Shown here piece after piece: positions 40,386 through 60,902 of a DNA stretch of 64,000 bases (positions within the stretch are counted from its first letter, which is position 1; every line of letters begins with the position of its first letter). Under the pieces are notes generated by a model that saw only the letters and a program-made list of their open reading frames with translations, ran no database searches and was not told the origin of the DNA. The DNA is from an uncultured Candidatus Saccharibacteria bacterium (GTDB taxonomy: Bacteria; Patescibacteriota; Minisyncoccia; Phycocordibacterales; UBA1006). The translations under genes and the position numbers were made by a program. Location: NCBI GenBank assembly GCA_964350165.1, contig CAYGJA010000001.1:174545-238544 (forward strand), in the 5' to 3' direction.

Positions 40386-41216
40386 TTAATTGCAAATTAA
40401 ATAAACATCTCGAGTTTTCGTCACCAATCCCTCGGCCATCATGGTACCGAGGATTTTTTGTAATCGTTCTATTTCTGGGGACTGGTCTATATCATTGGCC
40501 ACGAGGCGGGCAACTTCTTCTAGACTGGCTGGCCCCGCTAGCAATGCCCGCACAATAGCGCCGCGTATCTGTCGGTCTGATCCAACAAATGTACTTTGTT
40601 TGACATAATGCCGGCTGCGCCGGTTGGGGTTCGCTGCGCGCAGCACGTCGCCCAGATGCGATCCATAATCCATCAATGCCCAATACCACTGTCGATACTT
40701 TTTGCTCGGCAACATGGCGGTGACTTTTTCCAGCACTTCACCATCAGTTACGTCTTCTCGACCAGGAAAAAAGTGATGCAAAAACACTCGTCGAATATTC
40801 GTATCAACAAAACTCACTGGCCGATCGTACGCAAAAGCCATAATCGCCCCCGAGGTATACGGACCGATACCGGGCAATTGTTCCAGGACTGTTCGCTCCC
40901 TAGGTAGTTCGCCCTTGTGTTCTTTTACCACTAGCGCCGCCAGCTCCCCCAGCCGCAAAGCCCGATTGTTGTATCCCAACCCTTGCCACTGCTCTAATAC
41001 AGCCGCTCGATTAGCTCCAGCCAGAGCAACAAAGTCTGGCCACAATTCTATCCAGGTATTGAATTTGTCGATCACGCGAGGCACCTGCGTCTGCTGCAGC
41101 ATTATTTCGGAGACCAACACTCGGTACGGAGTAATATTCTGCCGCCAAGGCAAATCATCGCGACCATGCTGGCGATAATACGCCTCTATCCTGCTCTGAA
41201 AATCTGGCTTTTTCAC
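40386..41216 (-). CDS. mutY: MutY-like HhH-GPD adenine DNA glycosylase lacking the [4Fe-4S] cysteine cluster
   Basis: VLVSEIMLQQTQV and WQGLGYNNRA match the MutY catalytic core. HhH LPGIGPYTSGAIM. Catalytic Asp in VDTNIRRV. No Cys-x6-Cys-x2-Cys-x5-Cys cluster is present. Confidence 0.75.
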   Translation of the reverse strand: MKKPDFQSRIEAYYRQHGRDDLPWRQNITPYRVLVSEIMLQQTQVPRVIDKFNTWIELWPDFVALAGANRAAVLEQWQGLGYNNRALRLGELAALVVKEHKGELPRERTVLEQLPGIGPYTSGAIMAFAYDRPVSFVDTNIRRVFLHHFFPGREDVTDGEVLEKVTAMLPSKKYRQWYWALMDYGSHLGDVLRAANPNRRSRHYVKQSTFVGSDRQIRGAIVRALLAGPASLEEVARLVANDIDQSPEIERLQKILGTMMAEGLVTKTRDVYLICN

Positions 41217-42419: not shown

Positions 42420-42866
42420 CTATTTCTTTTTCTTGGCTGTTGTTTTTTTCTTTGGTTTGTCTGTTGTCGCCTTGATTGCGGTTTTCTTAACCTTTATTGG
42501 CTTTTCTGTTTTTGTTTTACTCGCATGTTTTACAGTACAGCTATCGCAAGCAGATACCCCGCAAGAATGACAGGCGCTACAATCTCCACAACGCTCACCT
42601 CCGCAACATTTGGTTCGGCCACCACAAGCACCAAAAATATTATAAAACCAAGCAATTACATATCCGCCAAAAAATCCATCAATAAATCCCCAGAGAAAAC
42701 CCAGAGCGGCTCCGGTAATGGTGAGTTCATAACCAGGATAAATTCTAATAAGGTCAAAGACCATGCCATCTTGACCCTGAGCAATAGCAATCAGGGTAAT
42801 CAAAAAGATGCCAAGTCCCCAAGTTGATCCAATGGCAAAACCCAATCGAGTCGGTGATAATCGCAT
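42420..42866 (-). CDS. hypothetical membrane protein with Cys-rich segment and poly-Lys tail
   Basis: Three TM segments, then CGGRTKCCGGERCGDCSACHSCGVSACDSC, then KTKTEKPIKVKK...KKKTTAKKKK. Confidence 0.5.
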   Translation of the reverse strand: MRLSPTRLGFAIGSTWGLGIFLITLIAIAQGQDGMVFDLIRIYPGYELTITGAALGFLWGFIDGFFGGYVIAWFYNIFGACGGRTKCCGGERCGDCSACHSCGVSACDSCTVKHASKTKTEKPIKVKKTAIKATTDKPKKKTTAKKKK

Positions 42867-42910: not shown

Positions 42911-44002
42911 CTAGTCAGCATCAAAAGAGATTCCTTGTAGCTTTTGCAGTGGATTAGGGCTCGGAACCGACGGATCACCATAGTCTATTTCTAGTTGACC
43001 AATCTTGGTCGCAACCTTGAGCGCTCTGGCGTGCAGGCGTTGGTTTCTTTTGCCGACACCCATCACTGCATATAGCATCGCTTCCTGTACCCAGTTTTCT
43101 TCTTTGTGAATTGTCTTTTGGATTACATCCAAATGACGCTCGAATTCTTTATCGGGGATATCCTGGGCTACTTTTGCCAAACGTTCTACTAGAATCCATC
43201 CCGTTCGACGAAAGAGAGGGTTATTTTCTCGTACCCAAGTGCGGATTTTTTCGGCACCATATACCGTATAAGGCAAAATCTCAGTGGCAATTTTGTCTGT
43301 AATATCCCAATAGTCAGCTTGACGAAGCCAAGTCTCTACTTGATGCTCTGTTACCTCGAGCGGATTTTCTATCATCGCCGCCAATACTTTGGCGTCATGT
43401 ATTCCTGTTTTCCACAAAGCTTTGGCCAGCACTCTATCACCATGATAAGGCTCGGCTATTTTTTGTAATTTATCTGGCGTGACGCCGTAGAATTTTTTGG
43501 CCGGATGACCCATGCGCGCCCAAATCTCCACCATCTGTGGATCATGAAGGCGTCGCAAATCAAACATTACCCGATCAATGGCCGCCATCGTTTTCTTTTC
43601 TTGCCCCAATTCATTAAGCAACACCTTGATCCTGCGTTCGATGTCTTTCATGCAATGCTCGATTGATACCGAGTCTCGTCTGTCTGGTGTTGCTATTTTC
43701 CACAACACAAAAGCATTTATGTAAGGATTATCTTTACGAAAAATAGAAGTAGGCACATCATCAGCCACCAAAACCACCAGGTCGTGTTTTTCAAGAACAT
43801 AGGTGCTCATGGCGGCCTGACTTGTTTTTAGACTTAGGCGATGCCCCCGAGCAACCTCCATAATCTCGGCTGGAGTCGGATGCCCACGAAAAAGACCAGC
43901 GCTCTGCGCATGCAACTGCTTGAGTTTGTTGTGTTTATTAAAATAGGCTTCAGCTAGTTTGCTGCGGATATTGTTGTATTTGGAGACAAACAGGATGTTC
44001 AT
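42911..44002 (-). CDS. fusion: low-molecular-weight phosphotyrosine phosphatase/ArsC-like domain (active-site Cys to Ser) + DNA alkylation repair (AlkD/AlkC-like HEAT) domain
   Basis: The N-terminus ILFVSKYNNIRSKLAEA aligns to the LMW-PTP P-loop VLFVCxGNICRSPxAEA with C12->S and C17->I. The DNPY general-acid region is retained. The C-terminal 220 aa match the DNA_alkylation family (ALWKTGIHDAKVLAAMI...YWDITDKIATEIL...RTGWILVERL). Confidence 0.7.
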   Translation of the reverse strand: MNILFVSKYNNIRSKLAEAYFNKHNKLKQLHAQSAGLFRGHPTPAEIMEVARGHRLSLKTSQAAMSTYVLEKHDLVVLVADDVPTSIFRKDNPYINAFVLWKIATPDRRDSVSIEHCMKDIERRIKVLLNELGQEKKTMAAIDRVMFDLRRLHDPQMVEIWARMGHPAKKFYGVTPDKLQKIAEPYHGDRVLAKALWKTGIHDAKVLAAMIENPLEVTEHQVETWLRQADYWDITDKIATEILPYTVYGAEKIRTWVRENNPLFRRTGWILVERLAKVAQDIPDKEFERHLDVIQKTIHKEENWVQEAMLYAVMGVGKRNQRLHARALKVATKIGQLEIDYGDPSVPSPNPLQKLQGISFDAD

Positions 44003-44095
44003 GAATTCGGCATTACAGAGACCGCTAGTATACAAAACACACACCCCTTGACGTCAAGACAAGAAGGGTGCTCGCACTCAGTATATACCAGTCGA

Positions 44096-44563: not shown

Positions 44564-45919
44564 GTGAATATAGAAAGACCACAACAGCCAGAGAATCAAA
44601 ACGGCAAAACACTAGGTCGGCGTGTTTTTTTGAAAAAAATAACCGAAGCAGTCGTTAGCCTGGGTGTATCCAGCATGAGCCTGGGTGTATCCAGTCCGAG
44701 CCCTGGTGCCATCACAGAAACTATCGAAAAACAGACTTCACCAACACCCCTCGAACGCTTTGAAGAGTGTGGTCCGTTGGAGGTTTGGTCCAAAAACCCT
44801 CTTATGCCGAGTAATCAAAATGACAATCTTTCGGAATTAACTGCCGGGAAAATAACAGAAACTTCAATGGATCAATATCTGAAACTCGTTACAAAAGCAG
44901 ATAAGGAACCTCTGAATGACTCCGAACAATACATCGTAGAACGCATTGCTCGCTGGCTACACACCAAAGGCAACACAGCCCGAGCAGAAGCCGAAAGAAA
45001 TCTTCTTTCTAATTTTCCCGAATACCAAAGTGACCCCGAGCTTGCGTGGAGATTACTCGAAGTGTGCTTCACTAGAAAAATACGTCGAGAATTACTAAAA
45101 ACAGCAGACAAGTTTTTGGCTGAAGGAAAATTATCTTATCTTGGCCTAGAACCACTCTCCCCCCAAGAAACAAACTGGTGCACCCAAGAACAGGTTCATC
45201 ACGTCACACTTGCCAGTGCAAAAGTTGCAAACAAAATAGCCAAAAACTGCTTGGAAACAGCTCCCGATATCTGGCTAGATGGACTGGAAAAAGAAGAACG
45301 TAACAACTATCTCTACTCTGAAGACAAATCTCCTGTTTCTTGGCCGCAGCCCGAAATACTCGCAAAACTAGAACAACAAGAAACCTCTTCTGGTGCCTAT
45401 CTAGGCGATGTCCCTTATTTTGTTTCCACCAACACAAAAAAGGGATTTTTTCCCACGTCAAAGCCAGATATTATCAAAATCGCAAAACTTTTAGAAAAAA
45501 GCACCAACCTACCCTACACAACAGAACTCTCCAACGGTCGGCTAGCTATTGAATATATTCCCTCTTCCATACGTGGAAATACCAAATTCAATACCAGTGG
45601 CGGTGCCATAATGGGTCAATTTATGCCTATTCATCTTCTACATCTTTTGGAAAAATATGAAGCCACCAGATTAGGTCATGAAGAAGAACTTCCCATTCTT
45701 CACCCCAATACCCCGCTTGGATCCATGGCGCTAAAGGCCTTGTATTTGTATGGATGCTGGAATTGGCGCCAAGGCAAAGAAGATGGAGGCTATTGGATAG
45801 AAAGCCGCTACCCAAAAGGTGGCGGCCTGCAAAACCCAGGAAAAGCCCTACGAACCTGGAATCCTAGCACAACAGAAATCAAGACAATCCTTGGCAGCCT
45901 ACCAGATCACAACGAATAG
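44564..45919 (+). CDS. hypothetical exported protein (Tat-like RR signal), 451 aa
   Basis: N-terminus GRRVFLKKITEAVVSLGVSS is a twin-arginine-like signal. The rest has no recognizable motif. Confidence 0.5.
   Translation: MNIERPQQPENQNGKTLGRRVFLKKITEAVVSLGVSSMSLGVSSPSPGAITETIEKQTSPTPLERFEECGPLEVWSKNPLMPSNQNDNLSELTAGKITETSMDQYLKLVTKADKEPLNDSEQYIVERIARWLHTKGNTARAEAERNLLSNFPEYQSDPELAWRLLEVCFTRKIRRELLKTADKFLAEGKLSYLGLEPLSPQETNWCTQEQVHHVTLASAKVANKIAKNCLETAPDIWLDGLEKEERNNYLYSEDKSPVSWPQPEILAKLEQQETSSGAYLGDVPYFVSTNTKKGFFPTSKPDIIKIAKLLEKSTNLPYTTELSNGRLAIEYIPSSIRGNTKFNTSGGAIMGQFMPIHLLHLLEKYEATRLGHEEELPILHPNTPLGSMALKALYLYGCWNWRQGKEDGGYWIESRYPKGGGLQNPGKALRTWNPSTTEIKTILGSLPDHNE
44657..44698 (+). repeat. 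tandem 21-bp repeat (2 copies + partial third) inside the Tat-signal region
   Basis: agcctgggtgtatccag(catg)/agcctgggtgtatccag(tccg)agccctgg. Encodes SLGVSSM-SLGVSSP-SPG. Confidence 0.7.
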
Positions 45920-46735: not shown

Positions 46736-47255
46736 AAAAACAACCGGGTTAGTATCCGGCCTCCTTCTTATATTATGCTATTTATTAAAACTTTTGTCAA
46801 ACAGATAGATTCAAGAACTGGCCTTAGATATCCTCGCTGGTTATTGCCGTTTCGGACACTTGTTCGTCGACAAAGAGAGCGACGGTGATAGGATTCGGCG
46901 GAGAGTAAGGGATTCGGTCAGGAGTCGTTATTTTCAAAAATCACTACGTGATTAAGAAAATATACGCTCACGACCCTAGCTTGCTCCCCAATGGTCGGCC
47001 TGCTGTCCTCGCATTGGGGCCCCGCTCCGCTTTTCGAATCCCTTATCTACTACAAACGAAAAGCTCCAACGCTACGCATTGGGACCTAACGTTTGTGGCG
47101 GGCTACCTCGGGCTGGAACCGTGGACAGTCAAGCCCAGTAAGGTTATTTTTTACTATTTCAGAATAACAAATCGAGGCGTCTCGAGCACACTATTTCGTG
47201 ACAAAAGTGACAGATTTAGGAATTAAAAGTTACACTATCCCGTAACATTATCGTT
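46736..47255. other. 520-bp structured intergenic region; candidate ncRNA and/or integration (att) site at the core/island junction; identity unresolved
   Basis: No plausible ORF. Several strong hairpins (ccccaatg...cattgggg at 46986-47019; GGGGCCCC). Plus strand has a GGATTCGGCGG motif repeated twice. Minus strand has GACUGUCCACGG resembling the RNase P RNA P2/P4 3' region. Neither a full tmRNA nor an RNase P fold could be built by eye. Confidence 0.3.
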
Positions 47256-47891
47256 TTAAAAACGACCTTCTAAACCCTTATCCGAGACCCGAGTAACTTC
47301 TATTGAACCGTGACGACCTCTGTCACGTGGATTACTATAGTAGTTACCCTTAAGAGTATTTCCCCCATCAAAAATACCAAGTACACATGTGCCATTATGA
47401 TCTCTCATGTCTTGATCATGATTCACAGTCGCTGTCCTATTTTGATATAAGTAGAAAATACTCCAATTTTTGTGTTCATTTACACCGACATCAGCAACAA
47501 TACTGTAGGATGAAGAATTTTTCGTATAAAGTGCCACGAATACATTTGTGAGAGTTTGCTTTATTTCAACCACAATCTCATATGTTTGAGATTCATTGTA
47601 ACTACTTACCAATAATCCCTCATACCGACCGTTAATATTTGGTATTTGAAATAGCCTAGAAAATAGAGGGTATTTCCATAGCCATCTATCGGTGAGCACA
47701 AAGAATGCAAACATAACAACCACTGTCGCTGGGGGTTCAATCAAGCCCATTCGTAACATGTCATCAACGGGAGGCATCAAAGTAATATTGTCTAAAATTC
47801 CTGATATAACCCTTGCTATCCAAAAAGAAGGTATCAAAGATCCTAGAAAGAACGTTATATAGAATTTGTATGTGAGTCGAAACGCTTTCAT
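47256..47891 (-). CDS. CBASS-type effector candidate: two N-terminal TM helices + about 130-aa soluble C-terminal domain (Cap15/2TM-beta or SLATT-like)
   Basis: TM1 FYITFFLGSLIPSFWIARVISGIL and TM2 PATVVVMFAFFVLTDRWLW, then a beta-rich C-terminal domain. It starts 5 bp after the nucleotidyltransferase gene on the same strand. Confidence 0.55.
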   Translation of the reverse strand: MKAFRLTYKFYITFFLGSLIPSFWIARVISGILDNITLMPPVDDMLRMGLIEPPATVVVMFAFFVLTDRWLWKYPLFSRLFQIPNINGRYEGLLVSSYNESQTYEIVVEIKQTLTNVFVALYTKNSSSYSIVADVGVNEHKNWSIFYLYQNRTATVNHDQDMRDHNGTCVLGIFDGGNTLKGNYYSNPRDRGRHGSIEVTRVSDKGLEGRF

Positions 47892-47895
47892 GCCA

Positions 47896-48777
47896 TTACA
47901 TGCCTAGAGCCAGACGCCATTTTTGCTCAGCCCCTGAAACAGTAGATGCATCATAAGCATCTAACGCATGATTCGAAGACTCGCGTAGCTGGTTGAAAAA
48001 GTTCTGCTGATTTATTATGCTCCATCCTTCAGTTATGTTTTCTACCCCGCAAACACTCGGAATGTCTCTGAATTGGCCTAGTTGTCGGTCCCATTTATCT
48101 AGTATGGCATTGCTCACCAAACAGAAAGTTCCAGCGTAATCATTGTAAAACTTGTCTGATGGCATTGCATAAACGAAGGCTTCCATTTTGAAAGACGAAA
48201 TGGTGTCAGAATCATGAAAGTGGTTTTTTACCCAATTTTTAAACATTCGGACTGTTGGCTTATAAGTGTCTTGTGTTGCTTGTTGTTTTACAACTCCGTT
48301 ATTGTAGTGAGTGCGAGGCATGTTCATTTTCTCAGTTCCTGTCCGCATTGAATAAACAGCAACAGGATCCGTCTTCGGATCATCTGAAATCTGCACCGCT
48401 GGTACTACATCTGCATTGAATGCTCCAGTAATTTTTATACATTTATCGCCACGTTCAATTGACCATTGGTAACGACGCTGGTTCCTAAGTTTCTGTTCGA
48501 TCTCTGAAAAAATACTGTCCCAAGAAATTGAGCCCGAGAAGCGACGTGGCGAATGTACTGAACTGTAAGTCGCTTTGCGGACTGCCACGACATCCACGTC
48601 GTTGATGTCAGAGATCGCCGTACTATTTTTATATGATCCTTGTAGGAAGGTATGATGAGTATCACCAAGCAATTCTTGAATATAGTTTTGAAGTGTGGCC
48701 ACTTGCGTTATTTTCGATGGCGACGGACTAGATGTCAGTGTGTCGATGAGGTGAGTTGGTATGTTGTGGCGTGCCAT
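47896..48777 (-). CDS. cGAS/DncV-like nucleotidyltransferase (CD-NTase, SMODS domain)
   Basis: Pol-beta NTase signature GSYKNSTAISDINDVDVVAV (GS...D.D) plus the downstream third acidic motif FNADVVPAV. 293 aa, typical of minimal SMODS CD-NTases. Confidence 0.7.
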   Translation of the reverse strand: MARHNIPTHLIDTLTSSPSPSKITQVATLQNYIQELLGDTHHTFLQGSYKNSTAISDINDVDVVAVRKATYSSVHSPRRFSGSISWDSIFSEIEQKLRNQRRYQWSIERGDKCIKITGAFNADVVPAVQISDDPKTDPVAVYSMRTGTEKMNMPRTHYNNGVVKQQATQDTYKPTVRMFKNWVKNHFHDSDTISSFKMEAFVYAMPSDKFYNDYAGTFCLVSNAILDKWDRQLGQFRDIPSVCGVENITEGWSIINQQNFFNQLRESSNHALDAYDASTVSGAEQKWRLALGM

Positions 48778-48788
48778 AATTTTTTGAA

Positions 48789-49445
48789 TTACTTCTTAAT
48801 CACATCAATTACTTTCCCGCTCACCTCAAAGTCATCTCCATATGCGATGAAAATTGGATGGTACTTTTCAGTTGAGTCTGCTTCTAAAACAAAGCGGTTA
48901 TGTACCACATCATTTCTAAAACGCTTGATCGTAGCAAGCCCATCAATTACAGCCACTACGATGTCTCTGTTCTTCGGTGTTTTATCTGCACTATCAACCA
49001 CAAGATAATCTCCATCCTCAATAGTAACTCCAGGCTTATTTGTAGGATCAACTTCGGCCTTATTCATAGACGGTCCATCTGCAACCAATACAAACAAATC
49101 TTTTTTACGATGAGGCAAGAGGCTGGTCGATACTTTGAGAAAACCCTCAACTCGCTCATCTGCAAATACAGTAGCGGGACCGCAATTAGCAGTACCGACA
49201 ATCGGTAGAGAAAACAATAGACGCGCTTTAGAGCTTACCGAATTGAAGCCTCGTTTGATTGGTTTGATAACATTATCCTCTAAATTCACTTGGAGAAGCC
49301 CTTTTTTATCTAGCTGAAGAAGATGATGCTTCACAATTTGAGGTTTGTTTTGTACCCCTACAAGTTTGGCCAAACTACGCAAACTCATTTGTCCCAGGTC
49401 ATGTTGACTTGCTAAATTTAATAGTTTTTCTTGTATTTGATGCAT
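48789..49445 (-). CDS. lexA: LexA/CI-like S24 autopeptidase repressor
   Basis: N-terminal LexA-type winged HTH (IQEKLLNLASQHDLGQMSLRSLAKLVGVQNKPQIVKHHLLQLDKKGLL). Ala-Gly-type cleavage region. C-terminal S24 domain with the Ser in ADGPSMN and the Lys in ATIKRF. Confidence 0.8.
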   Translation of the reverse strand: MHQIQEKLLNLASQHDLGQMSLRSLAKLVGVQNKPQIVKHHLLQLDKKGLLQVNLEDNVIKPIKRGFNSVSSKARLLFSLPIVGTANCGPATVFADERVEGFLKVSTSLLPHRKKDLFVLVADGPSMNKAEVDPTNKPGVTIEDGDYLVVDSADKTPKNRDIVVAVIDGLATIKRFRNDVVHNRFVLEADSTEKYHPIFIAYGDDFEVSGKVIDVIKK

Positions 49446-49570
49446 GGTTATATACTACCGTATATTTCTATATATGTCCACAATACTGTCAATTACCTTT
49501 ACACTCTTGACACCTGAAAACAAAGAGCATAAAATGGGAGTGGCTTAGTTCTTTCATTATCAGATTAACT
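49446..49570 (-). promoter_or_regulatory. putative promoter/operator of the lexA-like/CD-NTase/effector operon (divergent region)
   Basis: Minus-strand TTGACA-N17-TAGAAAT. The inverted repeat ATATAC-N4-GTATAT (49447-49462) lies between the -10 element and the start codon. Confidence 0.4.
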
Positions 49571-49729
49571 CTACTGACTATGGCTAAAAGCAATAAAAGT
49601 AAAGTCACCAGCCCCCGAGCAGCGCGTGCCGCCAGCAAAGTTCTACGAGATGGTCGGACTTCCCGATCATCCAAAACTGCTGCGGGAAGTGCTTTGTCTC
49701 AAAAGCCCGGACGACCCAAAAAGCGTAAA
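49571..49729 (+). CDS. small basic protein (52 aa), hypothetical
   Basis: ATG...TAA ORF MAKSNKSKVTSPRAARAASKVLRDGRTSRSSKTAAGSALSQKPGRPKKRK. It is absent from the ORF track (<60 aa) and divergent from the lexA-like gene. Confidence 0.3.
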
Positions 49730-49738
49730 TAAGATATT

Positions 49739-50071
49739 ATGGGAAACCTAAAGTACTACGATATTGTTTTGACTGACTTGAAGTTACATGTGCTTAAAGC
49801 TCGCAAACCAAAATCTTTCGGGTATCAGATGCACAGGTCACTGCGAACCGGAAAGCCTGGTCGAGCACGCAATCACGTTAACCAAATATCTGATGAACAA
49901 GACTCTGATTCTTTTGAGATATCTTTCCCTCTTGGAGAAGAAATCCTATCAGCACAACAAGAAGCTGCTAGACAAGGCAAAAAGTTACGAATTCTTTTTC
50001 CGAAAGACGGAATTCCTATCTTTGCTGGAGAAGATACTCAAGAGTATATCCTCAGCAAAAAGAAAAAATGA
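49739..50071 (+). CDS. hypothetical protein (mobile-element gene)
   Basis: 110-aa ORF. No motif. A 10-bp-stem hairpin plus T-run follows at 50170-50240. Confidence 0.4.
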   Translation: MGNLKYYDIVLTDLKLHVLKARKPKSFGYQMHRSLRTGKPGRARNHVNQISDEQDSDSFEISFPLGEEILSAQQEAARQGKKLRILFPKDGIPIFAGEDTQEYILSKKKK

Positions 50072-50258
50072 ATACACCTGTTAGCAAAACGTGTGGTATC
50101 ACGTATTTCGCAATCTAATTTGCGATAGAAGGTAGTCAATACTACCAGAGAGATCTCCATTGGTCTCGGTCATGCCCACTTTGCAAAGCAAACACCAGAA
50201 ATATTTCTGTTGTCTGTTTTGTGAAGTGGGCATTTTTATTTGTCTAAAAAGATAATTT

Positions 50259-51545
50259 ATGAACAAAAACAAAATCAAAATTGAATATATTCCTATTACT
50301 AAACTAAAAGCCTCTTCATACAATCCAAGAAAGATTGACCAAAAAAGTTTTGATCAACTTGTAGAAAGCATCAAGCACTTTGATTTGATCGATCCAATTA
50401 TTGTCAACGGATCACCCAATCGCAAAAATATAGTCATTGGTGGGCATATGCGTCTTCGTGCTGCAAAACACCTCGGTCGGGAAACAATGCCGGTTGTTTA
50501 TGTAAACATCTCTGACATAGAAGAGGAAAAAGAACTTAACATCAGACTCAATAAAAACACTGGAGATTGGGATTATGAATTACTCAAATCATTTGATCTC
50601 GACCTCCTTACTGATGTTGGTTTCGACAAAATAGACCTAGCCAGGTTTTGGGACGATGATACGAACGAGTCAAAAGATGATGAATTTAATGTCGAAAAAG
50701 AACAGAAAGAAATCAAAAAAACTGATATTGGGTTGGGTGATTTACTCATCATGGGCCAGCATAAACTTCTCTGCGCAGATGCCACTGATCCAAACGCTCT
50801 CAAAGCAGTATTCGGCAAAGACAAAGCGTCAATGATATACAGTGACCCAATCTATAACATCGGCCTGGATTACGACAAAGGCGTTGGTAACAAAGCAAGC
50901 TACGGTGGTACGGTTGACGATAACAAATCTGCCACGGAGTACAAATCATTTATCAAACAAACACTCGAAGCGGCATTATCTGTGTCAAACAAGAACACCC
51001 ATATCTTCTATTGGTGCGACGAAGCTTGGGTCTGGGTATTCCAGACCTTGTACAACGACCTTGGTATCAAAAATCGTAGACTTAACGTCTGGATAAAAAA
51101 CAACGCTTCGCCAACACCAACCGTAGCATTTAACAAGGTCACGGAGTTCTGTGTATATGGGACAAAAGGAAGTCCTTACCTGTCGCCACACATACGAAAT
51201 TGCACTGAAGTTGTGAATCCAGAATTAGGCACTGGTAATGATTTGCTCGAAGATATTCGCAATGTTTGGACAGAAAAACGTCTCAGAGCATCTGAATATG
51301 AACATGCAACTAGTAAGCCACCTCAATTACACGAAAAAGCAATCAAACGGTGTACAAAGCCTGGAGATATCATACTGGACTCCTTCTCTGGCTCAGCCAG
51401 CACTATGGTCGCTGCTGAAAAACTCAAACGACGAGTATATTCAACGGAGCTAGAACCCATCTTCTGTGAACTCGCGCGTCGCCGCTTCGAAAGTTTCACT
51501 GGTAAAAAAACAAAACTCATCAAAAAATTCTATGAAAAAGCATAA
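50259..51545 (+). CDS. ParB-like nuclease domain fused to beta-class N6-adenine/N4-cytosine DNA methyltransferase
   Basis: N-terminal ParB/Srx motif (IIVNGSPNRKNIVIGGHMRLRAAKHLG). MTase motif IV SDPIYNIG is followed later by motif I LDSFSGSAST (beta-class order IV then I). Confidence 0.8.
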   Translation: MNKNKIKIEYIPITKLKASSYNPRKIDQKSFDQLVESIKHFDLIDPIIVNGSPNRKNIVIGGHMRLRAAKHLGRETMPVVYVNISDIEEEKELNIRLNKNTGDWDYELLKSFDLDLLTDVGFDKIDLARFWDDDTNESKDDEFNVEKEQKEIKKTDIGLGDLLIMGQHKLLCADATDPNALKAVFGKDKASMIYSDPIYNIGLDYDKGVGNKASYGGTVDDNKSATEYKSFIKQTLEAALSVSNKNTHIFYWCDEAWVWVFQTLYNDLGIKNRRLNVWIKNNASPTPTVAFNKVTEFCVYGTKGSPYLSPHIRNCTEVVNPELGTGNDLLEDIRNVWTEKRLRASEYEHATSKPPQLHEKAIKRCTKPGDIILDSFSGSASTMVAAEKLKRRVYSTELEPIFCELARRRFESFTGKKTKLIKKFYEKA

Positions 51546-51939
51546 ATTCTCCCAAAAGTTCCTCGATGAGCTAAAGAAAGTACCAATAGTTCAGGTTGCC
51601 TGCGAAAAAACAGGATTGTCTCGCAACACTATCTACCGTTGGAAACGTGAAGATAAAAAGTTTGCTCAGGCATTTGACGAGGCACTATCTGATGGGATTT
51701 CATTCGTAAATGATATGAGTGAAAGTCAGTTACTACAACTAATCAAAGAGAAAAATTTTTCAGCTGTGCGCTTCTGGCTTAATAAGCGTCACCCTGCTTA
51801 CAAAGACAAACTAGAGGTGACACGATCTGGAAATATTGAAGAACTTACTCCAGAACAACAAGCTACTGTTCGCAAAGCACTGGAACTTGCCAAAATTATT
51901 CAACCTAAACAAGATATTCATGAAGAAAAATCACAATAA
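51532..51939 (+). CDS. putative terminase small subunit / HTH DNA-binding protein
   Basis: HTH VACEKTGLSRNTIYRWKRED. Size and position immediately upstream of the large terminase. Confidence 0.5.
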   Translation: MKKHKFSQKFLDELKKVPIVQVACEKTGLSRNTIYRWKREDKKFAQAFDEALSDGISFVNDMSESQLLQLIKEKNFSAVRFWLNKRHPAYKDKLEVTRSGNIEELTPEQQATVRKALELAKIIQPKQDIHEEKSQ

Positions 51940-53458
51940 CATTATTCCGGAAGATCTCTTCCAGACTCTCACCAAAGATAAAACTGTTCGTCGTGAAGTA
52001 ATGAAGAATAGTTTCAACTACTTTTTCCATTTTTACTTTCACCACTATGTAGAATTTGAAACCGCACCTTTCCAACACAATCTCATTTACAAATTGGAAA
52101 ATGAGCCAGATGAGAACATTTATGTCGTAGCATTCCGTGGTTCAGGAAAATCTACCATTGCTACAACGGCTTATCCAATTTGGTCAATCCTTGGGAAGCC
52201 TCAAAAGAAATTCATTATTATCTTCTGTCAAACACGCGCGCAAGCGAAGCAACATATGATGAACATCCGCAACGAACTAGAAAACAATCCTCTCCTCAAG
52301 AATGATCTCGGACCATTTAATGAAGAATCCGATGAATGGGGTTCTCATTCGCTTGTATTTTCAAATACACAGGCCCGTATCACTGTCGCTTCTTCTGAGC
52401 AGAGTATCCGAGGTTTGCGTCATCATCAGCACCGACCTGATTTATTTATCTGTGACGACGTCGAGGACGTACAATCAACTAAAACTCGAGAGGGGCGCAA
52501 CAAGACGTATCAATGGCTCACTGGCGACGTAATACCAGCTGGAGGAAAAAATACTCGATTAGTTGTAGTTGGTAACTTGCTCCATGAAGACTCGCTTCTC
52601 ATGCGTATTCGAGACCGTATCAATCAAAAAGAACTTGCTGGCACTTTCATGTCATGTGCAATTATGGACGACGATGGTAACTCTAATTAGACTGGCAAGT
52701 TTCCTAACCCTGAATCACTAGAAAAGGAACGTAAGAGGATTGGTGACGAAATTGCCTGGCAACGTGAGTATTTGCTGAATATCATTCCTGATGAGGATCA
52801 GGTAATTCATCTAGAATGGCTGCATTTCTACGACAATACCAAGTTGCCGCCAACAGAACATATCACCTTTAATGGCACCTATTCTGGGGTAGATTTGGCA
52901 ATTTCACTGAAAGATACAGCAGACAATACTGCTATTGTATCAGCTAATATTCATGGTCGGAATGAAAAGCTTCGCATATTTATACTGCCAAGCCTGATAA
53001 ATCAGAAAATAGACTTCCCTCAACAAGTTGAACTACTAAAGATGCATCGTGGAGCTGTTCTGAATAAACCCAATGATCGTCTTTTTGTTGAAAGTGTCGC
53101 ATACCAAGATGCATTACCTCAAATGCTTAATTCTCAAGGAGTTGATGCCGAAGCCGTCCGACCATTGAATGATAAGCGGACGCGACTAGCGCTAACCTCA
53201 ACCTCGATAAAGAACGGGAATATCCTTTTCCCGAAAACAGGATGTGAACAGCTTATTGAACAAATTGTGGGTTTTGGAGTAGAGAAACATGACGACTTAG
53301 CTGATGCTTTCTCTCTGCTTATCCACAAGATTGTTGAATTACACACTCAACAAGGAACCATTGCTTTTGCGATTATGGTTACTGGTAGTGACGATGATGC
53401 AGGTATTGTTTATCACAGTGACTATTATGATGTTCTAGACGATTATGATGTCAGCTGA
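51920..53458 (+). pseudogene. terminase large subunit interrupted by a single in-frame TAG at 52688-52690 (nonsense mutation or programmed readthrough)
   Basis: N-terminal ATPase with Walker A AFRGSGKST and Walker B LFICDDVED (51920..52687). After the TAG the same frame continues (TGKFPNPESLEKERKRIGDEIAWQREY...) into the RNase-H-like nuclease domain: GVDLA, ESVAYQD, HDDLADAF. Confidence 0.75.
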
Positions 53459-54028
53459 TTATCGATGTTTAATTGAGCCACCCAGTAAATTCTTGAATGA
53501 AACTTTACAGTTAGTAGCCGCTGGGTTGTCTGTGGTAAGTGTGGAAAATGGCGACGTTTGGTCAGGAAGAATGGGGTTGTATTCCAGAAGTGCTTCACTA
53601 GACTTCACAAACGTACCGTCTTCAGTGTAAATACTTCCAAGAACGGCAACATTTTCAAGAGGTTTTCCGCTAATATTCTTAACTTCACCATCAATATGGA
53701 AATAACCATATTCTTTGTAACAGTTAAAAGATAAAAGTTCGAGTTGATCTATATTTGATTCTTGTTGACGACTAGAGCTACTTGATTCACTTCTTGTGCT
53801 TGATGGTGATGGACTGGAGTCGTTGTCTCCTCCAAATATTGCTGTAAACATAACAATCATTCCAATTACAATGATTATCGTTGCTACAACATTTTGTGTT
53901 TTCTGCTTAGTTCCACAATAAGAGCACTTTCTTGCTTGTATAGGAATCTCTTTTAAACATTCGTGACACTTCTTGGTCGTGTTTGGATCGACTGGCTCAT
54001 TTGCTTTCGAGAGCTTAAATGACTTCAT
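53459..54028 (-). CDS. hypothetical membrane protein with N-terminal zinc-ribbon (CxxC...CxxC), one TM, Ser-rich linker and extracytoplasmic domain
   Basis: KKCHECLKEIPIQARKCSYCGTKQ, then TM IIIVIGMIVMFTAIFG, then SSPSPSSTRSESSSSS. Confidence 0.5.
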   Translation of the reverse strand: MKSFKLSKANEPVDPNTTKKCHECLKEIPIQARKCSYCGTKQKTQNVVATIIIVIGMIVMFTAIFGGDNDSSPSPSSTRSESSSSSRQQESNIDQLELLSFNCYKEYGYFHIDGEVKNISGKPLENVAVLGSIYTEDGTFVKSSEALLEYNPILPDQTSPFSTLTTDNPAATNCKVSFKNLLGGSIKHR

Positions 54029-54300
54029 AATAAAAACGTACCTAATTAATAATCAGGCAGTGGGCATATAAAAATCCCACCACCAAGTACAGCCGGAGCT
54101 GATATCGCAGATTTCTCTGAAATAGCACGAAGAGTGACCCTTGATGATGGGGTTTCAATACTCTTCGTGTCTAACGATATTTGGACCATACCGCCGTCGA
54201 AACGACGTCGGGTTAGGCCACTAAGTTGTTTTTCTATAGTACTCAACTACTACCTGAATAGCAATCAAATACTATAATTTCATTGTATCGCTGTTTGAGT

Positions 54301-54342
54301 CTTTTGCTAAACGTTTTGCCAACGTTTTTAGCTTAGCAAAGC
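54301..54342. repeat. nested inverted repeats upstream of the serine recombinase gene (candidate att/operator)
   Basis: cttttgctAAACGTTTtgccAACGTTTttagcttagcaaag. Two AACGTT-containing palindromes are bracketed by ttgctaa/ttagcaa. Confidence 0.4.
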
Positions 54343-54367
54343 AAGTGAACTCTGGCATTAATAGAAT

Positions 54368-55651
54368 ATGGAAAAAGAAGCAAAACTACGCTATTGCCTA
54401 TACGCCAGAAAAAGCACCGAGAGCGATGAACGCCAAGCTTTGTCAATTGAGTCTCAAGTGAAAGAGATGCTTCAAATTGCTGAAAAAGATGGACTAGATA
54501 TTGTCGATATTCGACGTGAAGCCAAGTCTGCTAAAGATTCTGGCAACAGGCCAGTGTTCAAAGAATTACTCAGTGATGTAAAACAAGAACGATTCAATGC
54601 GATTCTGACTTGGGCACCAGATCGGCTGTCTAGAAATGCTGGAGATCTTGGTTCAGTTGTTGATTTGATGGATGATAAGAAACTCTTGTCGATCCGGACA
54701 TATGGTCAAACATTTTCCAACTCACCCAACGAAAAGTTCTTGCTGATGATCCTGTGTTCGCAAGCGAAACTAGAAAACGATAACCGAGGTATTAACGTAA
54801 AACGAGGGCTCCGTACTAGATGTGAAATGGGACTGTGGCCCACTAATGCCCCTACGGGTTACGTCAAAGAAAAGCGCACTGACCGAAAGTGTCAATGCCT
54901 TCTGGATCCAGAGCGAGCGCCAGTAATTAAACAAATGTTTGAGAAGGTCGCATACGAAAAATGGTCAGGACGGAAGCTCTACCACTGGCTCAAGTTTGAT
55001 TTGAACTTCAGGACTGGCAAAGGCAAGAAACATCTCAGCCTCGGTAACATTTACCGCATCCTCGAAAACACCTTTTACTACGGCGAATTTGAATATCCAC
55101 GAAAGTCTGGTAATTGGTACCAAGGAAAACACGAACCAATCATTACCAAAGAACTATTTGACCTGGTTCAAGAACAAGTTAAAAACTCCCAACTGGTTCG
55201 CAAAGAAAACATCGAGTTTGCTTTTACCAAAATCATGAAATGTGGACTTTGCGGATCTGGTATATCCGCCACCGAGAAGTTCAAAAGGCTCAAAGCTGGC
55301 GGGTACAATCGCCATGTCTACTACGGTTGCACCAAGGCAAGAGATAAGCATTGCAAATGCGGCTATATCAATGAGACTGACCTGATAAAACAACTTCAAC
55401 AGCTCACTGGCCAACTCGATCTCAAGAAGACTCCAATGCAGAGCAAGATCAGGTCAGAAATCCGAAGATTCAAGAAGTTCCAAAGGATGGTCACTGGAAA
55501 AAGTGACAATATTGAAGTTACTGATATTGATGTACAGAATTATGCGAAGTTTATTTTGAAAGAAGGTTCAAATGAAGAAAAGCGAGACATTATAAAACAC
55601 CTCAAGGGATTTCTACTTCTCAAAGAAAAAGAATTATCCATTGAAACATAA
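54368..55651 (+). CDS. large serine recombinase (resolvase-family catalytic domain + recombinase domain + zinc ribbon)
   Basis: YCLYARKSTESDERQALSIESQ (catalytic Ser) and DRLSRN match the resolvase N-terminal domain. 427 aa. The C-terminal Cys cluster CGLCGS...CTKARDKHC is a zinc-ribbon typical of large serine integrases. Confidence 0.85.
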   Translation: MEKEAKLRYCLYARKSTESDERQALSIESQVKEMLQIAEKDGLDIVDIRREAKSAKDSGNRPVFKELLSDVKQERFNAILTWAPDRLSRNAGDLGSVVDLMDDKKLLSIRTYGQTFSNSPNEKFLLMILCSQAKLENDNRGINVKRGLRTRCEMGLWPTNAPTGYVKEKRTDRKCQCLLDPERAPVIKQMFEKVAYEKWSGRKLYHWLKFDLNFRTGKGKKHLSLGNIYRILENTFYYGEFEYPRKSGNWYQGKHEPIITKELFDLVQEQVKNSQLVRKENIEFAFTKIMKCGLCGSGISATEKFKRLKAGGYNRHVYYGCTKARDKHCKCGYINETDLIKQLQQLTGQLDLKKTPMQSKIRSEIRRFKKFQRMVTGKSDNIEVTDIDVQNYAKFILKEGSNEEKRDIIKHLKGFLLLKEKELSIET

Positions 55652-55692
55652 GTAATTTACTTGTACCCCCAAGGGGTATATAATACTTTCGT

Positions 55693-55962
55693 ATGAAAAG
55701 TGACAAATCAGCGAAGCTGGTGATACGCCTAAAGAAGATCGAAGGGCAAGTTCGCGGACTACAGAGAATGGTTGCCGATGATACTTATTGTATTGATGTA
55801 ATTACACAATCCTCTGCTATTCGCCATGCATTATCTTCGTTTGAAGACAAGCTCCTTGAACAACATCTTTCATCCTGCGTTGTACACCAAATCAAGGAAG
55901 GAAAAGAAAGCCAGGCGATTGATGAAGTTTTGGCGGTCCTCAAAAAAGCCAAGAAAAGATAA
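55693..55962 (+). CDS. csoR: CsoR/RcnR-family metal-sensing transcriptional repressor (Cu-sensing C-H-C type)
   Basis: LKKIEGQVRGLQRMV..DTYCIDVITQ...HLSSC carries the CsoR ligand set: Cys in YCIDV and H-x3-C. Confidence 0.85.
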   Translation: MKSDKSAKLVIRLKKIEGQVRGLQRMVADDTYCIDVITQSSAIRHALSSFEDKLLEQHLSSCVVHQIKEGKESQAIDEVLAVLKKAKKR

Positions 55963-55965
55963 TTT

Positions 55966-56379
55966 ATGAATACAAGAGCAACAAAGACAAGGTTATTTTC
56001 ACGAATTGGAATTGGTATTTTTGCTACCGTTGTTTTGATTGCATCCTTACTTTGCCTTAATTCTTTCCAGATGTCGAAAGAAGCTCCCTGTGGTGAGACA
56101 GCACAACATAGCAGCTCGTCACTTTGTGATAGTCCGATCAATCACGTTTCGTTAGCAAATCGAGCAATCCCACAAAATGCACTTGGCCTAGCTGCTTTTT
56201 TCTTACTGCTTGCGACTTTTGCGTTGCACTATGAGTCAGTAGCAAGGTTCTTTAACTCATTAAAAAAGTTTTTCAGCCCTCCGCCCAGACCAATAAGATT
56301 AAGGGCTGTTTCGTACCGAAGTATTTTTGTTTATCTCTTTGCAAAAGGCATTCTTCATACCCAAGTGTATTCATACTAG
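55966..56379 (+). CDS. hypothetical membrane protein
   Basis: Two hydrophobic segments and several Cys. No family motif. Confidence 0.35.
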   Translation: MNTRATKTRLFSRIGIGIFATVVLIASLLCLNSFQMSKEAPCGETAQHSSSSLCDSPINHVSLANRAIPQNALGLAAFFLLLATFALHYESVARFFNSLKKFFSPPPRPIRLRAVSYRSIFVYLFAKGILHTQVYSY

Positions 56380-58784: not shown

Positions 58785-60902
58785 TTGGGTCTTTATTCGC
58801 TAGTTAAAAACTGTATGGATCATAGTAAACACGCAGAACATAAAAAAGATACATCTGGGCATGATTGTTGCCATGATGAATCTCCTCAACAAAAAACTCA
58901 TCGTACTCATGAAATGCCTCATGATGGTGCGAGTTGCCATAGTGATAGTGGTAGCCATGGTGCACCTGGCATGAGTCATGGTAGTGCCAAAGATTTCCTG
59001 AAACGATTTTGGACTGTTACGGGACTTCTTGTTCCAATGGTTCTGCTTCATCCTGGAATCTTAGAGTTTCTTGGATTTGAAGTATTTCCAGCTACCAAAT
59101 GGATTCAATTTGGTTTGGCTGTTGTAATCTTCAGATTTGCTCTTGTCTTCTTTGAACATGCTTGGCATGAAATAAAAATGCGTCGCTATGGAATGATGAC
59201 GCTCGTCTCCATGGCTGTTGGTGCAGGATTTCTGTTTTCGGTGGCATCAACTTTCATTCCAGCTTTGGAAGCAGAATTCTACATTGAAATTTCATCGCTG
59301 GTTTGGGTTTTGTTGTTCGGTCATTATCTAGAGGCGCGATCCAGTAGTGCGGCTGGTAATGCCCTTCAAGAAGTGGCGAAATTACTCCCCAAGAAAGCGC
59401 ACAAGATAGTAGATGGTAAAGAGGTTGATGTAGATATTACTGAATTAAACCAAGGAGATACGGTCGTAGTAAAACCTGGCGAAAAAGTCCCTGCTGATGG
59501 AACAGTGATATCTGGGGGTGCAAATGTGAATGAATCATTGGTGTCGGGTGAATCAAAACCAATTAACAAATCATCAAAGAGTGAAGTTGTAGCGGGATCA
59601 ATTTGTTTGGATGGCTCACTTACAGTCGAGCTGAGCCGTGTCGGTGAAAACTCAACTGTAGGTCAGATCAAGAAGCTGATCGAACAAGCTGGTAAAACTA
59701 AGCCACGTTCACAGCGTATTGCAGACAAAGCTTCGGCAGTACTGACATTTGTTGCTGGAACGGTTGCGTTGCTTACGCTCCTGATCTGGACACTGGTTAT
59801 TGGGCAAACGTTTGTCTTCGCGATTACCTTGGCCATTACCGTGCTGGTTATTGCCTGTCCACATGCCCTCGGCCTGGCTATCCCAACTGTTACAACCATT
59901 ACCACATCGCTGGCGGTGAAAAACGGCTTCTTTATCAAAGACCTTAGTAAAATAGAAGTCATCCGCAAAGCTGATTATGTCGTTTTCGACAAAACTGGAA
60001 CTTTGACCAAAGGAGAATTTGGAGTAACCGAAATCGTAGCTTCTGGCAATGCGGATGAAGAGAAAGCACTCTCGGTTGCAGCTTCATTGGAACAGCATTC
60101 ATCCCACATCATTGGGCGCTCAATTCTCGAGTATACCAAGAAGAAAAACTCGGAATTGTCAGATATATCTGATTTCAAAAACATCGCTGGCCAAGGAGTG
60201 TCAGCAAAGATTGCTGATACAGAATACTTTGTAGGTAATGAAAGGTTAATTAAAACTCTGGGTTTCGATTTCAAATCACCTCAGGATCTATCAGGAACGG
60301 TTGTTTTCGTCGCAAGCACAAGTGAATTGCTAGGTTATATTGTGCTCGCTGATGCAGTCAAAGATCAATCATACAAAGCGGTCAAAGACTTGCATAAGAT
60401 GGGTGTAAAAGTAGCGATGCTGACGGGTGATAACGAAAAAGTTGCCAAGTCTGTATCTGATGAATTGGGTATTGATACGTATTTTGCTAATGTTATGCCC
60501 GAGGATAAATATACCCATATCAGAGGCCTTCAAGACGGCGGTAATGTGGTGCTGATGGTTGGCGATGGTGTCAACGATGCGCCAGCACTAACTCAGGCGG
60601 ATGCAGGAATTGCGATTGGTGCGGGTACTGATGTAGCAGTCGAGTCGGGGGATGTAGTATTGATGGATAATGACCCATCTGATATTGCACGACTGATTAC
60701 ACTGTCGAAAAAGGTCTATACCAAAATGATTCAGAACCTCATTTGGGCACTGGGATATAACATCATCGCTATTCCCGCGGCGGCAGGAGTATTTGCTGGA
60801 CTTGGATTCTTCCTGCGTCCTGAAATTGGGGCGCTATTGATGAGCCTCTCGACGGTGATTGTAGTAGCAAATGCAATGAGATTAAAAAGAATCAAATTAT
60901 GA
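58785..60902 (+). CDS. copB: copper-transporting P1B-type ATPase, CopB-like (CPH motif, His-rich N-terminus, no HMA domain)
   Basis: DKTGTLT phosphorylation site. TM6 motif IACPHALGLA (CPH). GDGVNDAPAL hinge. The N-terminal 70 aa are rich in His/Cys (HSKHAEHKKDTSGHDCCHDE...SHGAPGMSHGS). An alternative start is Met at 58815. Confidence 0.9.
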   Translation: MGLYSLVKNCMDHSKHAEHKKDTSGHDCCHDESPQQKTHRTHEMPHDGASCHSDSGSHGAPGMSHGSAKDFLKRFWTVTGLLVPMVLLHPGILEFLGFEVFPATKWIQFGLAVVIFRFALVFFEHAWHEIKMRRYGMMTLVSMAVGAGFLFSVASTFIPALEAEFYIEISSLVWVLLFGHYLEARSSSAAGNALQEVAKLLPKKAHKIVDGKEVDVDITELNQGDTVVVKPGEKVPADGTVISGGANVNESLVSGESKPINKSSKSEVVAGSICLDGSLTVELSRVGENSTVGQIKKLIEQAGKTKPRSQRIADKASAVLTFVAGTVALLTLLIWTLVIGQTFVFAITLAITVLVIACPHALGLAIPTVTTITTSLAVKNGFFIKDLSKIEVIRKADYVVFDKTGTLTKGEFGVTEIVASGNADEEKALSVAASLEQHSSHIIGRSILEYTKKKNSELSDISDFKNIAGQGVSAKIADTEYFVGNERLIKTLGFDFKSPQDLSGTVVFVASTSELLGYIVLADAVKDQSYKAVKDLHKMGVKVAMLTGDNEKVAKSVSDELGIDTYFANVMPEDKYTHIRGLQDGGNVVLMVGDGVNDAPALTQADAGIAIGAGTDVAVESGDVVLMDNDPSDIARLITLSKKVYTKMIQNLIWALGYNIIAIPAAAGVFAGLGFFLRPEIGALLMSLSTVIVVANAMRLKRIKL

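Follow-up and report, generated by a model that had tools for sequence, protein, structure and literature searches.

Low-molecular-weight protein tyrosine phosphatases (LMW-PTPs) and ArsC-type arsenate reductases share a Rossmann-like fold with a four-stranded parallel sheet. Their phosphate-binding loop (P-loop) lies between the first strand and the first helix, and it carries the signature CX5R(S/T), in which the cysteine is the nucleophile. Changing this cysteine to serine abolishes the activity of the LMW-PTP Primo-1 (C9S), and in the C7S mutant of DARP, the P-loop still holds a phosphate ion (PMC7772506). PDB entry 4kk4 is titled [quoted passage not shown] A second family, the HEAT-like-repeat proteins of the DNA_alkylation family, includes AlkD from Bacillus cereus, a non-base-flipping DNA glycosylase whose catalytic residues are Trp109, Asp113, and Trp187 (PMC8626424). 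It also includes AlkF and AlkG, for which glycosylase activity was not detected (PMC4433238, PMC8282808) and which bind branched DNA with a basic beta-hairpin (R203, K206, and K207) (PMC8282808). Here, we describe a gene that joins these two folds in one protein. It lies in a 64,000-nucleotide stretch of contig CAYGJA010000001.1, from an uncultured member of the Patescibacteriota; we will call the whole stretch the window. Sequence comparisons indicate that the N-terminal domain of this protein has lost both of the catalytic residues of its parent family, while the P-loop and its supporting residues were kept.

A rare two-domain protein

The gene and its domains are:

42911..44002, minus strand: complete fusion gene, encoding 363 amino acids, with an ATG at 44002 and the stop codon at 42911-42913
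43610..44002, minus strand: N-terminal LMW-PTP/ArsC-fold domain, residues 1-131
42914..43588, minus strand: C-terminal HEAT-like-repeat (DNA_alkylation) domain, residues 139-363

A preliminary description of this locus, made by reading the sequence, had proposed an LMW-PTP/ArsC-like domain fused to a DNA alkylation repair domain, and Pfam agrees. LMWPc (PF01451) matches residues 3-129 across the whole model (positions 1-144 of 144; 44.5 bits versus a cut-off of 23.2; E = 2e-11), and DNA_alkylation (PF08713) matches residues 148-330 (79 bits versus a cut-off of 21; E = 5e-22). The longest open reading frame (ORF) over the locus is slightly longer than the gene (42911..44044, minus strand). Because the homologs start at the identical methionine (MNILF), 42911-44002 is likely to be the gene, and the protein then begins with MNILFVSKYNNIRS. 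The upstream GTG at 44044 is probably not used, and neither is the TTG start of the NCBI record for the same protein (P0273), which has a longer predicted start (374 amino acids). The motif ILFVSKYNNIRS was confirmed in the translated sequence. The only cysteine in the protein, C117, is not conserved.

The fusion is rare. Among 5.8 billion proteins searched, only eight clusters combined the two domains (51-100% identity), and all of these come from metagenome assemblies. There was one fusion representative among 1.84 billion cluster representatives, and a scan of JGI metagenomes found just one further fusion locus. No fusion was found in 185,579 GTDB species genomes (one genome per species). 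We also found no paper that mentions both PF01451 and PF08713. The small number of clusters and the silence of the literature support the original suggestion that this pairing of domains had not been described.

Could the fusion, or the serine in its P-loop, be an artifact? In this explanation, the serine would be a sequencing error, or the fusion would arise from a frameshift or from the misassembly of two genes. The nucleophile position (residue 7) is serine in all eight fusion clusters, and all of the full-length fusions share ILFVSKYNxxRS. One cluster (P0007) is a fragment; a 22-kb contig from JGI carries the full-length protein, likewise with Ser7. The codon is TCC in the window and TCA in four homologous loci. 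Because Ser7 is common to all eight clusters, and is encoded by serine codons in five independent DNA loci, it is not a sequencing error. The eight clusters are on independent contigs, from varied samples and assemblers (Logan, ENA, JGI, and NCBI), with one uninterrupted ORF that includes Ser7 (TCC or TCA). Also, the domain junction, ELGQEKK, ranks among the best-conserved segments of the fusion. We rejected sequencing error and misassembly, and we consider the chance of an artifact to be negligible. Thus, the change from cysteine to serine that was first read from a single sequence is a conserved trait, with no canonical cysteine in any of the surveyed fusions. We conclude that the two domains truly form one protein, which belongs to a small clade of uncultivated Patescibacteria (Paceibacteria/Parcubacteria).

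The N-terminal domain and its parent family

Four segments of the N-terminal domain are discussed below:

43961..43984, minus strand: P-loop, S7-K-Y-N-N-I-R13-S14, with the nucleophilic Cys replaced by Ser and with N10, R13, and S14 kept
43817..43843, minus strand: fusion-specific motif H54-RLSLKTSQ-62, with almost no variation among the fusions and with no counterpart in the Cys-containing parent family
43721..43732, minus strand: fusion-specific insertion D91-N-P-Y94, with N92 and P93 invariant and with these columns gapped in most of the stand-alone relatives
43679..43696, minus strand: degenerate general-acid loop, residues 103-108 (I-A-T105-P-D-R), in which the canonical DP motif has lost its Asp

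We searched for relatives of the N-terminal domain with a HMMER profile, exhaustively across the 1.84 billion cluster representatives, and obtained 352 matches at E ≤ 1e-3, one of which is a fusion representative. The best 150 of the 352 matches are mostly stand-alone proteins of ~135 amino acids with the motif ILFVCKYNRFRS. These stand-alone LMWPc proteins (P0014-P0162) are metagenomic and uncharacterized, and JGI labels them "protein-tyrosine-phosphatase." They are also the proteins closest to the N-terminal domain (E down to 1e-28, 30-44% identity). They have the same length and the same order of secondary structure, and they share the P-loop residues K8, Y/H9, N10, R13, and S14, the SAG motif, and the ADDVP strand. 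Unlike the fusion, they keep Cys7 and the general-acid Asp, and they have neither the DNPY insertion nor HRLSLKTSQ. We saw no fusion to DNA_alkylation among them. A few members of the Cys-containing parent family are fused to other domains: LMWPc with a GNAT acetyltransferase (288 amino acids) and LMWPc with His_Phos_1 (263 amino acids) (P0026 and P0087). Judging from these proteins, the parent domain appears to be prone to fusion.

Residue losses were examined in an alignment of 133 sequences: 123 stand-alone relatives, seven fusions, and three reference proteins (Archaeoglobus fulgidus 1y1l, ArsC from Staphylococcus aureus pI258, and YwlE from Bacillus subtilis). The ArsC sequence was verified against PDB 1ljl. 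Position 7 is Cys in 120 of the 123 stand-alone relatives and Ser in 7/7 fusions. Position 105, which is the column of D105 in S. aureus ArsC and of D118 in YwlE, is Asp in 117/123 of the stand-alone proteins; in the fusions it is T, A, or S, within a variable stretch. In contrast, N10, R13, S14, S34, and G36 are conserved in both groups, strictly in the fusions and almost strictly in the parent family. The fusions have also gained conserved residues of their own: H54, L56, S57, L58, K59, T60, and S61 are present in 7/7, where the stand-alone proteins have F/G/I/K/I/K/G/K. As judged from this alignment, the N-terminal domain descends from a stand-alone family of ~135 amino acids with an LMW-PTP/ArsC fold, a CKYNRFRS motif, and a DP general acid. 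The fusion lineage has lost both catalytic residues (Cys7 to Ser, and Asp105 to T/A/S) and has kept the phosphate-binding loop and the residues that support it.

The loss of the acid departs from the preliminary description, which had taken DNPY to be a retained, DPY-like general acid. Alignment with ArsC and YwlE rules this out: DNPY is an insertion that lies off the acid column, and the true acid position is the variable T105. The same description had remarked on an isoleucine in place of the second cysteine of the P-loop. This is uninformative, as the parent family has Phe at that position in 110/123 sequences and never has Cys. It had also raised the idea of a pseudo-phosphatase, which fits the data better than was first thought, since the general acid is lost as well as the nucleophile.

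The N-terminal domain has the LMW-PTP fold, with the P-loop between beta1 and alpha1, and its motif is S7-X5-R13-S14 instead of CX5R(S/T). Unlike the A. fulgidus "arsenate reductase" 1y1l and other LMW-PTPs and ArsC proteins (YwlE, Wzb, and pI258 ArsC), it has no nucleophilic cysteine, no DP general acid, and no resolving cysteine. The positions of the resolving cysteines of ArsC (Cys82 and Cys89) correspond to A80 and to the T85 region. We rejected a thioredoxin-coupled arsenate reductase with the Cys10-Cys82-Cys89 relay of pI258 ArsC, given S7, A80, the T85 region, and the lack of a resolving cysteine. The ArsC models of NCBIfam give 13-22 bits, versus cut-offs of 157-174, and the Wzb model is likewise far below its cut-off.

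The fusion has the same substitution, in the same loop, as the engineered substrate-trapping mutants DARP C7S, YwlE C7S, and Primo-1 C9S. But those laboratory mutants keep the general acid, while the change in the fusion is natural and fixed in a lineage, occurs within a fusion protein, and is accompanied by loss of the acid. In our reading, the N-terminal domain would no longer turn over a substrate and would be a natural, substrate-trap-like module for binding phosphate or another anion.

Another possibility is that Ser7 acts as a phosphoryl acceptor or nucleophile within an intact P-loop, so that the domain is a slow or specialized enzyme or a phospho-switch. Its targets could be high-energy P-N substrates or DNA 3'-phosphates. 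The P-loop is hyper-conserved, a basic residue (K8) adjoins Ser7, and the title of the YwlE C7S entry (4kk4) implies that a serine at this position can be phosphorylated. However, the general-acid Asp is lost and its loop is variable, which leaves no machinery to protonate a leaving group or to hydrolyze an intermediate. Also, the same substitution abolishes activity in the LMW-PTPs in which it was tested (PMC7772506), and in the alignments of the fusions, we saw no conserved acid, His, or Cys in the N-terminal domain that might compensate. We consider Ser-based chemistry to be quite improbable.

Is the N-terminal domain still in use? Among the seven full-length fusions, the mean pairwise identity is 67% for the N-terminal domain and 54% for the C-terminal domain, and it is higher for the N-terminal domain in 21/21 pairs. 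Codon alignments of four loci give the same ranking, with a non-synonymous divergence (pN) of 0.13-0.30 for the N-terminal domain versus 0.23-0.40 for the C-terminal domain; synonymous sites are saturated in these alignments (pS of 0.72-0.95). The most conserved parts, which are essentially invariant, are residues 1-10 and 13-23, corresponding to the P-loop and its helix. Because the N-terminal domain changes more slowly than the C-terminal domain, and because the P-loop region is nearly invariant, we conclude that the domain is in use and is not decaying. An invariant P-loop combined with a variable former acid loop is the pattern that is expected if ligand binding is kept and catalysis is abandoned. 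These comparisons show that the fusion is selectively maintained.

The C-terminal domain and the proposed function

The segments of the C-terminal domain that we compared to AlkD and AlkF are:

43295..43309, minus strand: W232-D-I-T-D236, aligned to W109...D113 of AlkD; present in 8/8 fusions, and in the stand-alone relatives, W in 42/57 and D in 53/57
43205..43210, minus strand: R265-R266, with R266 aligned to R148 of AlkD; R266 present in 8/8 fusions and in 57/57 stand-alone relatives, with M-S there in AlkF
43070..43072, minus strand: Y311, aligned to W187 of AlkD; Y in five fusions and H in three, with N there in AlkF
42953..43000, minus strand: loop of residues 335-350 (LEIDYGDPSVPSPNP), at the position of the beta-hairpin of AlkF but without its basic residues; Y341 and G342 invariant

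A profile search with the C-terminal domain gave at least 7,800 relatives at E ≤ 1e-5 (8,000 candidates were scored). Among the 120 matches listed, the proteins other than the fusions are all single-domain proteins of ~190-290 amino acids, and JGI labels many of them as AlkD. When we compared the C-terminal domain to proteins with solved structures, the sole relatives by sequence were the AlkF entries 3zbo and 1t06 (E = 3e-10 with a single sequence, or 1e-28 with a profile). AlkD, AlkC, and AlkD2 did not reach E = 0.01 in this search. The domain is an alpha-solenoid of the DNA_alkylation type, and it has the close similarity to AlkF, in both structure and sequence, that marks the AlkF/AlkG group.

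Despite this similarity, the key residues appear to resemble those of AlkD. We mapped the residues of AlkD with hhalign, using a sequence that was verified against 3bvs. In this low-probability alignment, AlkD, a HEAT-like-repeat, non-base-flipping glycosylase of the same Pfam family, has W109, D113, and R148 where the fusion has W232, D236, and R266, and it has W187 opposite Y/H311. The residues of AlkF opposite W232, D236, R266, and Y311 are Y, D, S, and N. So, unlike AlkF (3zbo and 1t06), which is a single-domain protein with a basic hairpin, the fusion retains the Trp, the Arg, and the aromatic residue that AlkF lacks. A basic hairpin of the AlkF type was considered and rejected: the fusion has Y341, P344, and S345 opposite R203, K206, and K207, and the model shows no strand within residues 335-350. 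The initial label of "AlkD-type" calls for some qualification. The closest solved relative, by sequence and by fold, is AlkF, but the catalytic Trp and Asp of AlkD appear to be kept, along with the Arg that is missing from AlkF. At the level of sequence, the C-terminal domain appears to combine the scaffold of AlkF with a set of catalytic residues like that of AlkD. It is probably an active non-flipping glycosylase.

It could instead be an AlkF/AlkG-like binder of DNA structures, in which case the whole protein would be a scaffold of two "dead" enzyme folds. This question is independent of the role of the N-terminal domain. The kinship with AlkF is in its favor. Against it are the invariant W232, D236, and R266, together with the aromatic residue or His at 311, where AlkF has Y, D, S, and N, and the replacement of R203, K206, and K207 of the AlkF hairpin by Y, P, and S, with no hairpin predicted. 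We view a non-glycosylase as somewhat unlikely.

To model the structure of the protein, we ran AlphaFold2 with a checked alignment of 75 sequences (A6). The resulting model (m396552dce8ef) has a predicted local distance difference test (pLDDT) score of 95.1 and a predicted template modeling (pTM) score of 0.78, and its N-terminal domain has the canonical beta-alpha order. A model from the eight-sequence alignment was unusable for the N-terminal domain (pLDDT of 61 overall and under 50 for residues 1-103). A combined alignment of 136 sequences (A5) was dropped because MAFFT had placed relatives of the C-terminal domain on columns of the N-terminal domain. Searching with Foldseek gave TM scores of 0.84 for 1t06, 0.83 for 1y1l, and 0.80 for YwlE, so the prediction recovers the two proposed folds: an N-terminal domain of the LMW-PTP type (1y1l and YwlE) and a C-terminal domain of the AlkF type (1t06). 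We found no PDB chain that covers both domains in the Foldseek search. The domains are joined by one predicted feature:

43550..43672, minus strand: predicted continuous helix, residues 111-151 (from DSSP on the AlphaFold2 model), which contains the invariant L132-G133-Q134

In the model, this helix links the last helix of the N-terminal domain to the first helix of the HEAT-like solenoid.

The gene also lies among genes for DNA repair. Four homologous contigs share the order MsrB, the fusion, a small membrane protein (holin-like), a putative truncated MutY-like HhH-GPD glycosylase, and a UvrD-PDDEXK helicase-nuclease; these genes are co-directional and closely spaced. A fifth contig (L001) retains three of the five: the fusion, the membrane protein, and the helicase-nuclease. 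The window has an inserted DHODH gene, which lies on the opposite strand.

Our best reading is that the N-terminal domain is a non-catalytic phosphate-binding module, attached to a probable non-flipping glycosylase, with DNA phosphate as its ligand. We hold this reading tentatively, at a little less than an even chance. The C-terminal solenoid would probably bind duplex DNA on its concave face and would probably excise cationic or bulky alkylpurines without flipping the base. The P-loop may hold a phosphate of the DNA, either in the backbone or at the end of a strand at a nick or branch. The single long helix that is predicted by the model would couple the N-terminal domain to the N-terminal end of the C-terminal domain, and the grip on a DNA phosphate would help the repair domain to bind more tightly or to be positioned.

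A P-loop that is kept without catalysis would suit any phosphorylated or oxyanion ligand, however. The N-terminal domain might have a regulatory or protein-interaction role in which it binds a small anion (phosphate, arsenate, or sulfate) or a phosphorylated partner, does not contact DNA, and leaves the DNA to the C-terminal domain alone. The invariant surface motifs that are specific to the fusion (HRLSLKTSQ and DNPY) could form a protein interface, and the parent family is found in varied non-DNA contexts and also fused to GNAT or His-phosphatase domains. A role at DNA is favored by the neighboring repair genes and by the rigid helix that is predicted to couple the domain to a DNA-binding solenoid, but neither is decisive. 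We consider a purely regulatory role to be unlikely.

Several points weigh against a phosphate-binding module that serves a glycosylase at DNA. The ligand of the N-terminal domain could be a phosphorylated residue of a protein or a small anion, instead of DNA. In the model, the predicted geometry between the domains depends on just eight paired sequences. As for the C-terminal domain, no glycosylase activity was detected for AlkF (PMC4433238, PMC8282808), and the third catalytic position in the fusions is Y or H instead of W. The hhalign match to AlkD has a probability of just 28%, which is a weak basis for residue correspondence, albeit in a register that agrees with the shared Pfam family. 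Finally, the gene neighborhood fits a role in repairing damage, but the conserved synteny may reflect the relatedness of the genomes alone.

A more specific proposal is that the pseudo-phosphatase reads DNA phosphates and thereby guides a non-flipping repair domain of the AlkD/AlkF type to the substrate. What it recognizes could be the 5'- or 3'-phosphate that ends a strand at a nick or branch, the backbone, or an alkyl-phosphotriester site. We think that this version is rather doubtful. A more radical version would have Ser7 perform chemistry on DNA ends via a phospho-serine intermediate.

The surrounding genes and wider meaning

For the UvrD-PDDEXK helicase-nuclease, identity to proteins from metagenome-assembled genomes of Paceibacteria, Parcubacteria, and other Patescibacteria does not exceed 50%. 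The source is therefore a member of the Patescibacteria (CPR) that has no close relative among the species representatives. Using the helicase, we found 80 related loci from Patescibacteria. Neither domain of the fusion was found within 10 kb in these loci, so we saw no "ancestral" split arrangement. In several of the relatives that lack the fusion (L009, L014, and L036), MsrB is 2-5 kb upstream of the helicase-nuclease. Because this arrangement is present in relatives without the fusion, the MsrB-helicase neighborhood predates the fusion or is independent of it.

The small membrane protein (42420-42866, minus strand) comes directly downstream of the fusion in each of the five homologous loci, and its first 75 amino acids match NCBIfam's holin_4 ("bacteriophage holin"; 76 bits versus a cut-off of 70). 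Beyond the match, the protein has a Cys-rich stretch (CGGRTKCCGGERCGDCSACHSCGVSACDSC) and then a tail rich in Lys. The HhH-GPD protein (40386-41216, minus strand) matches positions 2-188 of the 277 positions of TIGR01084 (MutY), with 168 bits versus a cut-off of 286, and we saw neither the Cys cluster for Fe-S nor a C-terminal domain. From its sequence, it may be a truncated, MutY-like glycosylase of the sort that is typical of reduced genomes. On the other side of the fusion, and divergent from MsrB, a 451-amino-acid ORF (44564-45919, plus strand) has no match in Pfam or NCBIfam. Its N-terminus has a segment like a signal peptide or transmembrane helix, with a short duplicated peptide (SLGVSSMSLGVSS).

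The window uses the standard genetic code and carries rpoB, rpoC, and a gyrB-like ORF, which were named from N-terminal sequence and size only. A stretch of lower G+C content (0.40-0.41), at about 47000-56000, includes a SMODS nucleotidyltransferase (47896-48777, minus strand), a protein with ParB_N and N6_N4 DNA methylase domains (50259-51545, plus strand), and a large serine recombinase (54368-55651, plus strand). This stretch is probably an integrated mobile element or a defense island. Further along, 58785-62320 (plus strand) encodes a P-type ATPase (E1-E2_ATPase) and, after it, a multicopper oxidase; several small membrane or secreted ORFs precede the pair. By sequence, this looks like a copper-resistance pair. 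A promoter scan gave a count equal to that expected from shuffled sequence; the excess of terminator-like sites was mostly inside coding sequence and could not be interpreted.

Both folds were already known, as was the concept of a pseudo-phosphatase. What is new is the pairing of the domains, the loss in nature of both catalytic residues from a bacterial LMW-PTP-fold domain whose parent family can be identified, and a repair domain that is a hybrid of AlkF and AlkD. In practice, the scope is narrow, with eight known clusters that are found in metagenomes only.

If the proposed function is correct, then the fusion would be a clean natural case of a pseudo-enzyme: the Cys and the Asp were discarded, the ligand-binding loop is under strong selection, and a presumably active parent family is available for comparison. 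To our knowledge, a pseudo-phosphatase that reads DNA phosphate would be the first from bacteria to be shown to act in DNA repair. The HEAT-like-repeat repair proteins rely on contacts with the DNA backbone to recognize damage, and tuning that recognition through an extra phosphate-binding domain would be new. It might also hint at the function of the AlkF-like branch of the family. For the Patescibacteria, with their reduced genomes, the fusion would be one more component of the DNA-repair repertoire.

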